A stretch of DNA of 64,000 bases, from the NCBI GenBank assembly GCA_041287245.1, contig JBEULP010000003.1:1-64000 (forward strand), given 5' to 3'. Made by a program: the position numbers and the translations under genes. Below, piece after piece: positions 50,317 to 63,879 of this stretch. Source of the DNA: Infirmifilum sp. Its GTDB lineage: Archaea; Thermoproteota; Thermoprotei; Thermofilales; Thermofilaceae. The notes under the pieces were generated by a model. The model saw only the letters and a program-made list of their open reading frames with translations. It was not told the DNA's origin and ran no database searches. Numbering within the stretch: position 1 is the stretch's first letter; each line of letters starts with the position of its first letter.

Positions 50317-50328
50317 GGAGCCTCACCC

Positions 50329-58294: not shown

Positions 58295-58409
58295 GGGGCC
58301 GTAGTCCAGCCTGGAAGGATGCCTGGCACGCTCTCAAAGCGCAGGACTCGGGCTCACACCCAAGTGACAAGAGCCCAGGTGGTCCCGGGTTCAAATCCCG
58401 GCGGCCCCA
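58295..58409 (+). tRNA. tRNA-Pro(CGG) with two introns (32/33: 58328-58347; 37/38: 58353-58373)
   Basis: GGGGCCG/CGGCCCC-A; spliced arm CCTGG-CT-CGG-GC-CCAGG; BHB1 CCTG/CAGG, BHB2 CTCG/CAAG. Confidence 0.92.
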
Positions 58410-58624: not shown

Positions 58625-58714
58625 CGGGCCCGCCGGGACTTGAACCCGGGACCTACGGCTATCCCCGTGCGGTTCTCCGAAGGCCGCCGCGCCTCCTGAC
58701 TGCGCCACGGGCCC
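58625..58714 (-). tRNA. tRNA-Arg(TCG) with 16-nt intron (58661-58676)
   Basis: GCGGC-CT-TCG-G|intron|A-GCCGT; acceptor GGGCCCG/CGGGCCC-G. Confidence 0.94.
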
Positions 58715-58827: not shown

Positions 58828-61743
58828 CTACTTTACAATTATGGCGGGCCTTGCGGGTAATGCTTGTCGAGCTTTAGAGGTGTCGGAAGCCTCATCCTCG
58901 TGGAGCATGATTATCTTCTTTTGTGTCACTTGCTCGAAGAATTCTCGCGCGTCGAATAATGCTCTTTCCTCTAGATCCGGGTTGACTAGGAGGTCTAGGA
59001 TCTCGCTGTTCTTGACTATGATTTCTATGAGACTCCCAGCTTGCTTTTGACTCTCGGTTGGCAGCTGTCTAAGGGCCTCGCGTATAGCTTGCTGGAGTTT
59101 CCCGTGAGTTTTTAGGTTGCTTTTTATTCTTTCCAGGAAGTCATACTTCCATCTACTGGGTAGCACTATGACGAGTTCATTTATCTTCTCGCTTCCCACC
59201 ACCTTGAGTAGCTCCTGAATGTCCTCTAAGACCTTTTGCACTATCTTCTCAGCCCTCTCGGCCTCTTCGTTTATTTTACTACTGTCCGCGACCGGCCAAT
59301 TTTCAAACTGGATTAGGGTCTTCTTACCGAGCCTCTCCCATATTTCTTCGGCAATGTGAGGCGTAATGGGGGCCAGGATTAAGGTTTGAACTTCTATGAA
59401 CCTCTGGAGAAGTGTTTTATTTGGAACGCCGCGCCTCTTCAAGTACCATTTAAAGGAGTTTTGAAGGTGGAAGAATCCTTCTGTAATCACGTTTTTCATG
59501 TTGAGCTTCTCATACTCTTCTTCGATAATTTTCAGTGTACGGTTTAAAACACTTTCAAACCAGTCGTCTATGAACTTCCTCTGCACATCGCCCTTGCCGT
59601 AGTTCTCAACCGCGAAGCTATACCATTCGTAGAGAATATTGACCGCGTTAGACGCAAACTCAGGCTCAAAGTTACCGTCGTCTAGGCCTGTATTACCGGC
59701 GTACGCGTTGGTAAACCTTGTAACATCCGCTCCCCAGTAGTCTAGCGCCTCCCTTAACAGTATGAAGTTGCCCTTCGATTTCGACATCTTTTCTCCGGCA
59801 ACGTTGATCCAGCCGTTTATTGCAATGCCCCTGGGCCAATGCTCAGGTGGGAAGATAGCGACGTGGTGCATTATGAAAAACACTAGGTGGTTCGGAATAA
59901 GGTCCTTGCCTGAGACGCGTAGGTCAACAGGATACCAGTAGAGGAACTCTGCGCGTATTTTCTTCAAAAGCTCCGGGTCTATGCCGAGCTTCTCAGCAAC
60001 AGCGTTTAAGTCCCCCCTCCCGAGGAACACATAGTCATAGAAAGAGCGGTCTATACGGTCCCAATTTATCCCATAAGCCTCAGGGTGCTGGAGATACTTC
60101 GAAATAGTGTAGTAAGCCATGTAAATGGTTGAGTCGCTTAGTGACTCTAGAACCCACTTCTCATCCCAGGGCAAAGGAGTCCCAAGCTCCCGCTCATGCG
60201 TACAGGCCCAATCTTCGTACCAATCGACCAGCCTGTGGAACTCGCTCTTTAGCTCTGGTGGGAGAAATAGCATCGCCTCTATACATTTATGCGCCTTAGC
60301 CTTCCACTCTGGGTCACTGTAGCGTAAAAACCACTGATCCTCGACGATTTTTACATGTGTACGCGTCCCACACCGACAGTAGACTGGCCTGGGGAGTGTG
60401 TAGTGACGCAGAGCATAGCCGCTCCTAACAAGAAACTCTATAACCTGCTCCTTAACCTCAAAAACCCTCTTCCCGCCCCACTCCTCGCCATACACCTCTT
60501 TTCGGAGAACCCCATTATAGAACTCTTTCGAGTAAATCTCCTTAGTAGCCTCCTCTAGTTTTTCTTTCTCGCCCTGGAATACTATCCCATGTTTCCTAAC
60601 TATAGTCTCCGCGGGATATTCACCGTAGCCTTCGAGCACTATTAAGCTGACCGGCTTAACCGCATCAATTATTGTCGGGTCTACCCCATACTTGTCTAGA
60701 AGGTTGGGATCCCTCCTTAGATCCTCCAAGGCAACCCAGTCGTAGGGGGCATGAGCCGGTACCGACATTACAACCCCAGTCCCCGCCTCAGCATCCACAA
60801 ACGTTGCTGGGAGAACAGGTATCCTCGCCTTAGTGACAGGATTCTCTACAAACCTACCTACAAGCTCGCGCCCCCTTATCCTTCCGAGCACGCTAACCCT
60901 ATGCCCCTGATCGGCCAGTTCTGAAGCTCCATAACTGCCTAAGACAAACCTCTCGCCGTCAACGTTAACAACCAGATACTCCGAATCGGGGTTAACCCAA
61001 ATGTTCACCGCGCCGTAAACCGTCTCAGGCCTGTAGGTGAGGCATGGATATGTAAGCCCATCCTCCCCCTTGAACTTGATAATTACAACTTTCTCTGGAC
61101 CTATACCTGCATACTCATCCGGCCTGTCATGGTCGCCCACAACTTTATGCTCCTTTGGACACCATACCACCGGGTGGGATCCCCTGGTTACATAGCCGTT
61201 TTCACGCAAGACGCTATACTGCCACTGGATGAACTTGTTATACGGAGGGTTAAGATACGTGGTGAAAAACTCTCTCCTCCAGTCCACTGAGAGGCCATAC
61301 CTTGTGAAGTCCTCTCTAAACCCCTTGGAGAAGAACCGGACCCAGTACTCCGGGTCCCTAAACCTGGGAATCTCGTCATCACTAATCCCCATGGACTTCA
61401 AAATACCAATCTGCTTAGGATCCCCCTCCCTAACCCTCAGCGCTGCCGCCACAATCGGTCCTCCTGTAGCATGCCAGCCCTGCGCAAAGAGCACATTGTA
61501 GCCCTTCATCCTCTTGTAGCGTGCAACTATGTCTACACGAAGAACAGTATACGCCGTGCCAAGGTGGGGGTAAGAATTGATATACGGGTAAGGGAAAGTG
61601 ATGAAGAACTTTGGCTTCGAGTCGTCAGGCTCTGCCTCAAAAACCTTGAGGTCGGACCATCTTTTTTGCCACTTAGCCTCAATACTCTTCAGAAAATCCC
61701 TCCTTTCAACGTTGACCGGTGGGAATTGTAGCCTTCTAGCAAT
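58828..61743 (-). CDS. leuS: Leucyl-tRNA synthetase; start lies upstream of the tracked ORF at a non-canonical codon (ATT 61743 or CTG 61692)
   Basis: Frame stays open for 78 codons above Met 61509 and encodes IEAKWQKRW and FFITFPYPYINSYPHLGT (HIGH region); downstream CP1 GTGVVMSVPAHAPYD, ESLSDSTIY, KMSKS. Confidence 0.95.
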   Translation of the reverse strand: MARRLQFPPVNVERRDFLKSIEAKWQKRWSDLKVFEAEPDDSKPKFFITFPYPYINSYPHLGTAYTVLRVDIVARYKRMKGYNVLFAQGWHATGGPIVAAALRVREGDPKQIGILKSMGISDDEIPRFRDPEYWVRFFSKGFREDFTRYGLSVDWRREFFTTYLNPPYNKFIQWQYSVLRENGYVTRGSHPVVWCPKEHKVVGDHDRPDEYAGIGPEKVVIIKFKGEDGLTYPCLTYRPETVYGAVNIWVNPDSEYLVVNVDGERFVLGSYGASELADQGHRVSVLGRIRGRELVGRFVENPVTKARIPVLPATFVDAEAGTGVVMSVPAHAPYDWVALEDLRRDPNLLDKYGVDPTIIDAVKPVSLIVLEGYGEYPAETIVRKHGIVFQGEKEKLEEATKEIYSKEFYNGVLRKEVYGEEWGGKRVFEVKEQVIEFLVRSGYALRHYTLPRPVYCRCGTRTHVKIVEDQWFLRYSDPEWKAKAHKCIEAMLFLPPELKSEFHRLVDWYEDWACTHERELGTPLPWDEKWVLESLSDSTIYMAYYTISKYLQHPEAYGINWDRIDRSFYDYVFLGRGDLNAVAEKLGIDPELLKKIRAEFLYWYPVDLRVSGKDLIPNHLVFFIMHHVAIFPPEHWPRGIAINGWINVAGEKMSKSKGNFILLREALDYWGADVTRFTNAYAGNTGLDDGNFEPEFASNAVNILYEWYSFAVENYGKGDVQRKFIDDWFESVLNRTLKIIEEEYEKLNMKNVITEGFFHLQNSFKWYLKRRGVPNKTLLQRFIEVQTLILAPITPHIAEEIWERLGKKTLIQFENWPVADSSKINEEAERAEKIVQKVLEDIQELLKVVGSEKINELVIVLPSRWKYDFLERIKSNLKTHGKLQQAIREALRQLPTESQKQAGSLIEIIVKNSEILDLLVNPDLEERALFDAREFFEQVTQKKIIMLHEDEASDTSKARQALPARPAIIVK

Positions 61744-61776
61744 CAGCCCTCACCCTAACCCCCTATACCATTTGTT

Positions 61777-62025
61777 TTAAAAAGTATTTTGACCCCCCTT
61801 TTCCTGAACCACGCCGAGGTAGTCGTAAATATCTCCCTTTCGCACCATCTCCTCATAAACATGCCAAACACGCTTCGGCGTGACGAGCCCCGAGTAAAAC
61901 CCCTTCTCCTCCAGCTTTTCACGAACCCGATCGACGAAATCATCCGGCTTTACGAGAGGGTCTCTTCCTAAAACCTCCAGTATAACCTCACGTATATCTT
62001 CGTTGTGCGGATAAGGTTTCTTCAT
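61777..62025 (-). CDS. Small hypothetical protein, possibly winged helix
   Basis: 82-aa ORF with TTTAAATA upstream; same strand, directly ahead of leuS. Confidence 0.7.
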   Translation of the reverse strand: MKKPYPHNEDIREVILEVLGRDPLVKPDDFVDRVREKLEEKGFYSGLVTPKRVWHVYEEMVRKGDIYDYLGVVQEKGGQNTF

Positions 62026-62081: not shown

Positions 62082-62675
62082 ATGGAGTTTATCCGAAAAC
62101 TGCACGATTTTATTCACTTCCGTATTCACACCCCCTTTGGCAGAACTCTCCTTCCAGGAGTTGCGAGGAGATATATAGCTACCAACCTTTACGACGGAAC
62201 CCTGCTAGCCCTTGGCACCGTCGTAAGCTCATTGCTTCTCAAACTCCCACCAAGGGAAACTGCGTTTAACGGAGTAGTTATAGGCTTCTCTTCTCTCGTC
62301 TCCGGCTTCATGGGCGCTTTTCTAGTAGAGAGAGCGGAGCTCACCCGCGAGATCAGCGAACTTGAAAAGCACCTCTTCATCCGCATAGGGAAAAGACACG
62401 TATATATGACAGGGATTATCCTCAGCTTGCTCAACGCGGCTAGCACTTCAACCCCCATATTCCTCTCAATGACACCCTATGTCCTAGCCTATTTTGGATT
62501 CCTACCCGTAGAGCTCGCTCCCCCAGTGGCACTGATAATAACCTTGCTGCTTCTATCTTTGCTAGGTTTCTTTCTAGGGCATATCGCCAACGAAAACCCC
62601 GCGCGCACGAGTGCGCTAACGATCCTGTCCGGCCTCGTAATATTACTCTTCGAGATGCTTCTTGAGGGACGTTAG
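62082..62675 (+). CDS. VIT1/CCC1-like membrane protein (TIGR00267-like)
   Basis: RRY...N..DG.L, SG..GA.LVERAE...LE; several TM helices. Confidence 0.8.
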   Translation: MEFIRKLHDFIHFRIHTPFGRTLLPGVARRYIATNLYDGTLLALGTVVSSLLLKLPPRETAFNGVVIGFSSLVSGFMGAFLVERAELTREISELEKHLFIRIGKRHVYMTGIILSLLNAASTSTPIFLSMTPYVLAYFGFLPVELAPPVALIITLLLLSLLGFFLGHIANENPARTSALTILSGLVILLFEMLLEGR

Positions 62676-62712: not shown

Positions 62713-62973
62713 ATGGGCACGCCGAGAATCACCCGAATGGTTATCGACACTTTAAAACCGCGCGATGTCTCGATCGTCGAGATAGCACATTCCCTAATAA
62801 ACCTAAACTCCATCACCCACGTCGAAATCAACGTCGCTGAGATCGACGTGAAAACGGAAACCCTAAGGATTACCCTCGTCGGTGAAAATATCGATCTCAA
62901 GGAAGTCGAGAAAACACTCGAAAAACATGCTGCAGTGATTCGAAGCATCGATTTTGTAGCCGCGGAAAAATAG
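62713..62973 (+). CDS. DUF211 family protein
   Basis: R.VID.LKP, EIDV.T, G.NID, AVIRSID.V. Confidence 0.85.
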   Translation: MGTPRITRMVIDTLKPRDVSIVEIAHSLINLNSITHVEINVAEIDVKTETLRITLVGENIDLKEVEKTLEKHAAVIRSIDFVAAEK

Positions 62974-63879
62974 GTGGTTTTCCTGTCGCTTCTCGATGTA
63001 TATTTCTCGCCTCCCAGCCCGCCTCTCTTCGGCAGGTATGGTGGTAAAGACGAGAAAGTCGTCGTCATGGGAGTGCCCTTCGACTCCGCCGCTACGAGAA
63101 CGCCTGGACAGAGGTTTGCTCCAAGAAAGATACGCGAAGTCTCCGTTGAGCTGGAGACTTTTTCCCCGGAGCTTGGCGTATATGTGGAGGAGCTGGGATA
63201 TAGCGACGCGGGGGACTTGCCTATACTAACGGACTTTCAGGTAATGGATGAGGTTGTCTCAAAAGTGGTGCGAGAACTTATTGAAGCGGATAGGTCTACG
63301 ATAGTGCTGGGCGGGGACCACCTTGTGAGCTTTCCTGTTATTCGCGAATACGCCCTGCACTTTGAAAAACTCCTTGTTGTGGTTTTTGACGCCCACCTAG
63401 ATCTCCGCGATGAATATCCTCTCAGAACCAGGTTTTCACACGCGACGGTTATGAGAAGACTACTTGAAAGTACCGAGAATATCTCTATAGCATATTTCAG
63501 CCCACGCGCCTTCTCGAAGGAAGAATACGAATACGCCAGGAAATCTAAACGTGTTTATCTCGTGAAAACCGCCTCGGAGCTTGAAAAGCTCCTCGGCTCT
63601 TTTAATAATGTATATGTCTCGCTAGATATCGACAGCATAGACCCAGCTTTTGCTCCTGGAACAGGAACTCCAGAGCCTATAGGGCTAACACCTCAGACGG
63701 TTGCCAGCGTCTTGAAAATTATAGCTGAGCGCTCTAGAAGGGTTGTTGGTCTTGACTTGGTGGAGGTTAACCCTCTTGTAGATTGCAACGATATAACCTC
63801 TCTTACAGCTGCAAAGCTAATAATGGAGTTCCTCTTTTCGTTTGCCGCAACGAGAAGCCTGCGTGCACTCACAGGATGA
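62974..63879 (+). CDS. speB: Agmatinase (ureohydrolase family)
   Basis: GGDH, FDAHLD, SLDIDSIDPAFAPGTGTPEP.G, DLVEVNP. Confidence 0.93.
   Translation: MVFLSLLDVYFSPPSPPLFGRYGGKDEKVVVMGVPFDSAATRTPGQRFAPRKIREVSVELETFSPELGVYVEELGYSDAGDLPILTDFQVMDEVVSKVVRELIEADRSTIVLGGDHLVSFPVIREYALHFEKLLVVVFDAHLDLRDEYPLRTRFSHATVMRRLLESTENISIAYFSPRAFSKEEYEYARKSKRVYLVKTASELEKLLGSFNNVYVSLDIDSIDPAFAPGTGTPEPIGLTPQTVASVLKIIAERSRRVVGLDLVEVNPLVDCNDITSLTAAKLIMEFLFSFAATRSLRALTG

Follow-up and report, generated by a model that had tools for sequence, protein, structure and literature searches.

T-box riboswitches and leader-peptide attenuators set the level of an aminoacyl-tRNA synthetase by the charging of its cognate tRNA, which is read through a specifier codon. 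In prfB, the essential translation gene for release factor 2, autoregulation is by a +1 frameshift at which a slow A-site codon, with an adjacent Shine-Dalgarno (SD) sequence, reports on that gene's product and allows the P-site tRNA to re-pair. In the absence of T-boxes and classical attenuation, the means by which archaea adjust their synthetases to the supply of amino acids is, to our knowledge, an open question. The subject here is the start site of leuS, the gene for leucyl-tRNA synthetase (LeuRS), of Infirmifilum sp. (Thermofilales), on a stretch of 64,000 nt (contig JBEULP010000003.1, positions 1 to 64,000; hereafter the window). The enzyme's frame appears to begin at an AUU behind an SD sequence, and this AUU is overlapped by a UUG in the +1 frame that is followed by a Leu codon and opens a short decoy open reading frame (ORF). 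It is proposed, with a probability of about 0.6, that the overlap is a feedback switch in which slippage of the initiator tRNA gives LeuRS when charged Leu-tRNA is scarce.

Several components of such a switch have been described singly. Slippage in the -1 direction by a single P-site tRNA at a hungry codon has been described (PMC8211752), as has slippage of the initiator tRNA at start codons under the name SCARF, where the initiator tRNA occupies the start codon, the A site lies in another frame, often -1, and the events increase under amino-acid starvation (bioRxiv 2023.02.15.528768). The layout of leuS, and of the cysteinyl gene cysS, would fit such a frame change at the start codon. SCARF is described in human cells as a global noise that eIF5B controls and that yields out-of-frame junk, whereas the archaeal layout is conserved gene by gene, with one amino acid for each, and its shifted frame is that of the real protein. 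In a 2021 review the only demonstrated cellular -1 frameshift in archaea is that of fucA1, which is internal to the gene (PMC8211752), and a 2016 review gives no starvation-specific trans-frame product as known (PMC5009743). Like prfB (PMC10798248) and antizyme (PMC5009743), leuS would be split between frames, here in an essential translation gene, and it shares with prfB the absence of a canonical in-frame start and an A-site codon that reports the gene's own product, Leu, Cys and Ile fitting their enzymes. The productive frame is, unlike that of prfB, -1 relative to the UUG and lies at the start codon, the proposed agent being the initiator tRNA and not a peptidyl-tRNA shifting +1 in an upstream ORF; moreover the host is an archaeon and the sensing codon is swapped among three genes. 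The proposed sensor differs from those of both prfB and antizyme in being a sense codon for the enzyme's own tRNA rather than a stop codon or polyamine. Two overlapping starts under one SD sequence, with initiation split between the frames, are known from the E. coli AUGUG and GUGUG arrangements (PMC9841429), but there the offset is two bases, both starts are canonical, the split is set by spacing and the accessible text describes no sensing of an amino acid. A conserved AUU start on a translation gene is found in infC, under feedback by IF3 (PMC5499595), and leuS is similar in its conserved AUU. It differs in that its product is LeuRS and not a factor of initiation fidelity; infC senses an initiation factor and has no overlapping start or cognate codon. 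T-boxes and attenuators work through a long structured leader, unlike the archaeal device, which occupies about 20 nt with no structure and no Rfam family. The layout would combine the logic of prfB and antizyme, the hungry-codon or SCARF step, the overlapping-start arrangement and the purpose of the T-box, and lacks a defining feature of each. The open-access literature, a coverage that leaves most subscription papers and supplements outside, yielded no programmed sensor of an amino acid at a start codon, and a prior mention is possible.

The gene lies on the minus strand in a stop-to-stop frame at 58828-61749 (973 aa; see Table 1 for the features of the locus). It matches TIGR00395 with 973.7 bits against a cut-off of 648.5, over positions 2-937 of the 938 in the profile, and is the single LeuRS detected in the genome (119 contigs). 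Since the profile matches from residue 22, the stretch above ATG 61509, the first canonical in-frame start, is coding. An earlier note made from the sequence of this DNA had placed the LeuRS N-terminus with its HIGH-type motif (PYINSYPHLGT) in that stretch and had seen no in-frame ATG, GTG or TTG there, and both observations were borne out, the ATG being 80 codons from the capping TGA and 78 from the ATT. The ATG cannot yield an active enzyme because it is located below the motif. In the window this motif (61555-61575, minus strand) reads HLGT, a lineage variant and not decay, because orthologs of the order carry HLG[TS]. At least 20 coding-like codons above the first canonical start occur in 37 of 1668 predicted genes of the genome, and the gap of leuS is the second largest.

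The earlier note's spacing of 6 nt between GGTGA and the ATT was also correct; the GGTGA-GGCTCC-ATG with which it compared this spacing is present at 50327 before a small basic ORF, for which rpl37e is that note's own label. Across the genome the distance from a GGTGA-type SD sequence to an ATG, GTG or TTG start is 4-7 nt and most often 5-6 nt. In the comparative sets described below, the commonest distance from the SD to the base preceding TTG is 5-6 nt for leuS and 6 nt for cysS, so that the in-frame NUU is at the optimal distance and the UUG one base beyond, both within range. The TATA-like element 40 nt above the ATT suggests a leader of about 12-15 nt beginning near the SD. No stable RNA structure was found at the leuS 5' end (folding z 0.78), and no Rfam family, the Rfam matches there being only tRNAs downstream.

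Comparison of the start sites of orthologs, which had been suggested as a check, revealed strong conservation. Among 29 full-length orthologs in the order the site reads ATT GCT in 23, TTT GCT in five and ATT GTT in one, that is [A/T]TT-G[C/T]T in 29/29. It lies 19 to 28 codons from the conserved core and follows an SD-like motif wherever the contig extends that far. What is conserved is a unit of SD, 5-6 nt, N-UUG and a Leu codon, in which the UUG overlaps an in-frame AUU or UUU, while the decoy ORF varies in sequence and in length (2-24 codons in relatives). In all 29 the in-frame Ala or Val codon has T at its wobble position, whereas in none of 109 comparable conserved four-fold columns from the same 29 genes is the third base invariant (maximum 72%). 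Where Ala has become Val (GTT) the next base is G in 13/13 tree leaves, so that the +1 codon remains Leu (TTG); parsimony on the leuS tree gives three switches between Ala and Val and five changes of the Leu codon. Six loci with the same sequences as others (L045-L049, L051) were dropped before the counts, as were L030 and L193 (no 5' end or duplicate) and L076, L088 and L119 (no anchor), and L028 was read as L044. From the tree counts L209, L212, L213 and L222 (internal chance sites without SD) and the ambiguous L053 were removed, and L043 was too short for the tree. Over the wider set of 52 leuS sites the predicted in-frame landing codon is ATT in 46 and TTT in six. A more distant LeuRS (L037, G033:C19) also carries an ATT GTT G site, with an N-terminus only 9 codons above the core, like L036.

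The same comparison bears on simpler accounts of the missing start. Initiation at a CUG, which the earlier note offered as its second option, has in its favour a GGAGG 6 nt upstream of CTG 61692, but CTG is present at that position in 9/28 orthologs and the frame is conserved upstream of it; of the two non-canonical starts in the note it is the ATT, conserved 5-6 nt behind an SD, at which the frame begins. An assembly error, either ATG to ATT or an indel, was the other candidate. The same ATT GCT is found in many independent genomes, and the site is conserved in relatives that include the single-contig genomes G001, G005, G006 and G007, on which ground sequencing error was rejected. No variant at the site appeared in 3/3 contig sets, which come from one study, possibly the window's own source, and weigh little. 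Given this conservation both the CUG start and the assembly error are refuted, with a residual chance that is practically negligible. An mRNA intron was also considered, and by eye no conserved upstream ATG was seen in the ortholog comparison, which was the extent of the test.

Further evidence comes from the identity of codon 2 of the decoy. For each locus the best SD-led N|TTG was picked with codon 2 disregarded, in the Thermofilales, in a second order, that of G087 (labelled Desulfurococcales), in other orders and in other archaea. Within the Thermofilales the site was found in 32/37 leuS loci and codon 2 was Leu in 32/32 (CTA, CTC or TTG). The five loci without it are L007 (contig end), L021 (ATT GCT present but with a weak SD and an in-frame ATG two codons up), L038 and L039 (ordinary ATG) and L041 (in-frame GTG). 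In the second order the site was found in 24/75 loci and was followed by Leu in 19, with CTT and CTG also used; two of the five non-Leu picks have an ATT GTT G site adjoining the picked one. Elsewhere it was rare, being found in 3/40 leuS loci of the class's other orders (none with Leu) and 3/62 of other archaea (one with Leu, the ambiguous L053).

In the window's genome 42 sites with an SD and N|TTG were located close to gene starts, including that of cysS (L125, G000:C82 about 21387, minus strand), where A TTG TGT, with a Cys codon, lies 6 nt behind GGTGA; in a stricter scan a match of codon to synthetase occurred in leuS and cysS only among 22 candidate sites. The cysS site was then found in 33/41 loci of the order, with Cys in 32, and in 21/33 loci of the second order, with Cys in 20. 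As background, the codon after an internal out-of-frame TTG is Leu in 48/489 cases and Cys in 4/242. The in-frame residue after the GTG that this layout forces in cysS is Leu in 42, Ser in six, Gln in two, Tyr in one and Phe in one, its codon always beginning with a pyrimidine, compared with a pyrimidine next in 22/88 SD-led GTG starts of the window's genome, of which 4/88 are preceded by TT. For the isoleucyl gene ileS, Ile was predicted after a single case (L342) and 60 further loci were then fetched, namely the 30 top hits from each of two queries. The site was present in 23 of the 61 loci examined and Ile (ATT, ATC or ATA) followed in 18, spanning three orders (L374-L376 and L384-L398); the window's own ileS is without the layout. 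The base before TTG at the cognate sites is A in 46/52 (Leu), 41/52 (Cys) and 18/18 (Ile), otherwise T or G and never C. The layout at leuS is a real and strongly conserved feature, and in the sequences compared codon 2 fits each of the three synthetases, so that the sequence constrains the proposed mechanism well.

These observations are difficult to reconcile with a plain weak AUU start that follows initiation fidelity, as the earlier note had suggested, in the manner of infC and with an incidental overlapping UUG. Such a start would suit an ATT at the preferred SD distance and a clade of leuS genes, described below, with ATT or ATA and no decoy, and infC is a precedent (PMC5499595). However, it fails to predict the invariant wobble T, the changes that preserve Leu or the TTT variants, and a synthetase has no obvious connection to initiation fidelity. 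It is contradicted by a codon 2 that fits the enzyme's amino acid in three genes, and leaves unexplained the N-TTG with the enzyme's own codon in the +1 frame and the cysS and ileS versions, and is accordingly very improbable. The survey for other SD-led ATT or CTG starts that the note had proposed gave no clear enrichment of either codon behind GGTGA in the genome. Its intuition that leucine matters for the start of leuS proved sound.

The switch would work as follows. The SD positions the P site over A-UUG, and the initiator tRNA would settle on the canonical UUG with CUA (Leu) in the A site. With plentiful Leu-tRNA the CUA would be decoded, giving a 17-residue junk peptide and then a stop. 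When Leu-tRNA is scarce the A site would remain empty and the initiator tRNA could re-pair one base back on AUU, keeping the central pair and exchanging the third pair for the first; GCU (Ala) would then stand in the A site and full-length LeuRS would follow. More LeuRS would restore Leu-tRNA and close the switch, and cysS and ileS would be controlled likewise with Cys or Ile codons. Of the canonical starts only UUG has a -1 neighbour that retains the central U opposite the CAU anticodon, and AUU, like UUG, forms two pairs with that anticodon. It is in keeping with a slip that TTG is the out-of-frame start at the leuS, cysS and ileS sites and that 14/51 leuS loci, among them the window's, lack any canonical in-frame start above the conserved core. 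The possibility that the UUG is a Leu codon inside a longer ORF begun upstream was ruled out in the window, where a TGA stands directly before it. In relatives, the +1 frame upstream of the UUG is without a start in 34/52 leuS and 26/52 cysS sites, the rest having scattered codons, many within the SD. On balance it is likely, judging from the aligned start sites, that three hot-spring archaeal orders use a portable 20-nt start-site switch for synthetases, in which a codon is tested and the initiator tRNA slides by one base.

Several findings weigh against this slippage reading. The UUU landing site (six leuS and nine cysS sites) offers one Watson-Crick pair to the initiator tRNA. A canonical in-frame codon exists somewhere upstream in 31/52 leuS sites, mostly a GTG inside the SD, and such codons could be the starts in those genomes; the in-frame GTG of cysS, present by necessity, could likewise act as the start, either directly or after a +2 move. 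In the window's genome the remaining 20 synthetase-like genes, among them ileS, start ordinarily in frame; in five further genomes the class IIa-type genes and valS also showed ordinary starts by eye, with one unclear. The motif was defined after leuS had been seen, the genomes are akin and backgrounds were computed for Leu and Cys; binomial values, which ignore kinship, were not used. Finally, eleven leuS genes of one second-order clade begin with an SD followed after 5-6 nt by ATT or ATA and a Ser codon, with no overlapping UUG (L073, labelled Saccharolobus, L212-L215 and L217-L222), and because of this clade AUU apparently works alone and the slip is not strictly needed. The genomes of L212-L222 carry two LeuRS-like genes, and the decoy was possibly lost there after duplication of LeuRS. 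Duplicated LeuRS genes in the Sulfolobales have reportedly been the subject of earlier work.

Sensing could also take place without a slip, if AUU and UUG compete under one SD, the UUG draining the mRNA into the decoy and stalled complexes recycling to the AUU when Leu-tRNA is scarce. All of the conservation data fit this equally well. The AUU register is the one favoured by the SD spacing, one clade has plain SD-ATT/ATA starts, and E. coli initiates at both of two overlapping starts that share an SD (PMC9841429). Yet a complex stalled on the UUG would cover the AUU too. Initiation factors check the start codon, and de novo initiation at UUU, which 15 sites would demand, is hard to credit. Competition of this kind is considered unlikely, if still credible; slippage and its drop-off and re-initiation variants would sense the same cognate tRNA signal. 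Another alternative is that the decoy senses the tRNA but acts indirectly, on mRNA stability, by coupling to transcription or by exposing another start, the enzyme being made constitutively from the AUU or from a GTG in the SD. The GTG that 25 leuS sites carry in frame 2-4 codons upstream and the forced GTG of cysS would serve such a scheme, but in the window and at 13 other loci there is no canonical in-frame start above the core, the 5' end lacks the stable structure and Rfam family sought there, and the one-base overlap of decoy and productive start is left unexplained, which makes an indirect role improbable.

Related layouts were found at other loci. In the class's other orders leuS has a short out-of-frame ORF encoding Met-x(1-3)-Phe/Ile-Leu, from which a shift by +1 leads into the frame of LeuRS, at 12 of the 14 loci inspected (L180, L182, L184, L186, L187, L223-L229), and an in-frame ATG follows in four. 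A mirror of the layout occurs at ileS, with SD, 4-5 nt, ATT and an Ile codon and the enzyme in the +1 frame (TTA TCY), in 13 of the 21 sites picked (L354-L363, L365, L367, L405); an ATG upstream in the decoy frame is present in some and absent from others.

Table 1. Features at and around the leuS start site, in window coordinates
Feature	Position	Strand	Remarks
leuS coding sequence from in-frame AUU	58828-61743	-	971 aa; predicted N-terminus Met-Ala-Arg-Arg-Leu
In-frame AUU	61741-61743	-	predicted landing site of initiator tRNA (productive frame); 6 nt from GGTGA
Out-of-frame UUG start	61740-61742	-	+1 frame, overlaps AUU; preceding codon in that frame TGA
Putative sensor codon CUA (Leu)	61737-61739	-	decoy codon 2; overlaps in-frame GCU (Ala)
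Decoy ORF	61689-61742	-	+1 frame; 17 codons and TGA
Shine-Dalgarno GGTGA	61750-61754	-	6 nt from AUU, 7 nt from UUG
TATA-box-like TTTTTAAAA	61775-61783	-	40 nt above ATT
First in-frame ATG	61507-61509	-	below HIGH-type motif
CTG, alternative start of the earlier note	61690-61692	-	GGAGG 6 nt upstream; not conserved
82-aa ORF	61777-62025	-	no NCBIfam match; its stop sits within the TATA-like element
TIGR00267-like membrane protein	62082-62675	+	score below cut-off
86-aa ORF	62713-62973	+	no match
Agmatinase	62974-63879	+	
tRNA gene directly 3' of leuS	58625-58714	-	ARAGORN Pro-CGG; 90 nt, possible intron, anticodon uncertain
Second tRNA match	about 58300-58409	+	

ARAGORN detected 19 tRNAs in the genome, a clearly incomplete set that includes tRNA-Leu(UAG). 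An exact look-up of two predicted proteins in a sequence collection matched neither. Four other genes of the window's genome have coding-like 5' ends without a canonical start, with an SD-like motif about 6 nt before a CTG (C25, 15798-16349, minus strand), an ATA (C29, 232701-233093, plus strand), an ATA (C70, 566-2587, plus strand) and an ACG (C61, 40085-40453, plus strand), which are possible near-cognate starts.

If the proposed switch is correct, it would provide a minimal answer to the control of synthetases in archaea, requiring a few nucleotides and a sensing codon swapped from gene to gene, and would define a new class of recoding by programmed frame choice at initiation. It would bear on the grip of the initiator tRNA after subunit joining, would mean revised N-termini for three essential genes in the annotation of many genomes and would offer a compact amino-acid-specific biosensor for thermophilic archaea. 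Should its portability between genes and orders also hold, it would be the first case of a programmed change of frame at a start codon and, together with the mirror form at ileS and the early +1 forms at leuS, the equivalent in archaea of T-boxes and attenuators.

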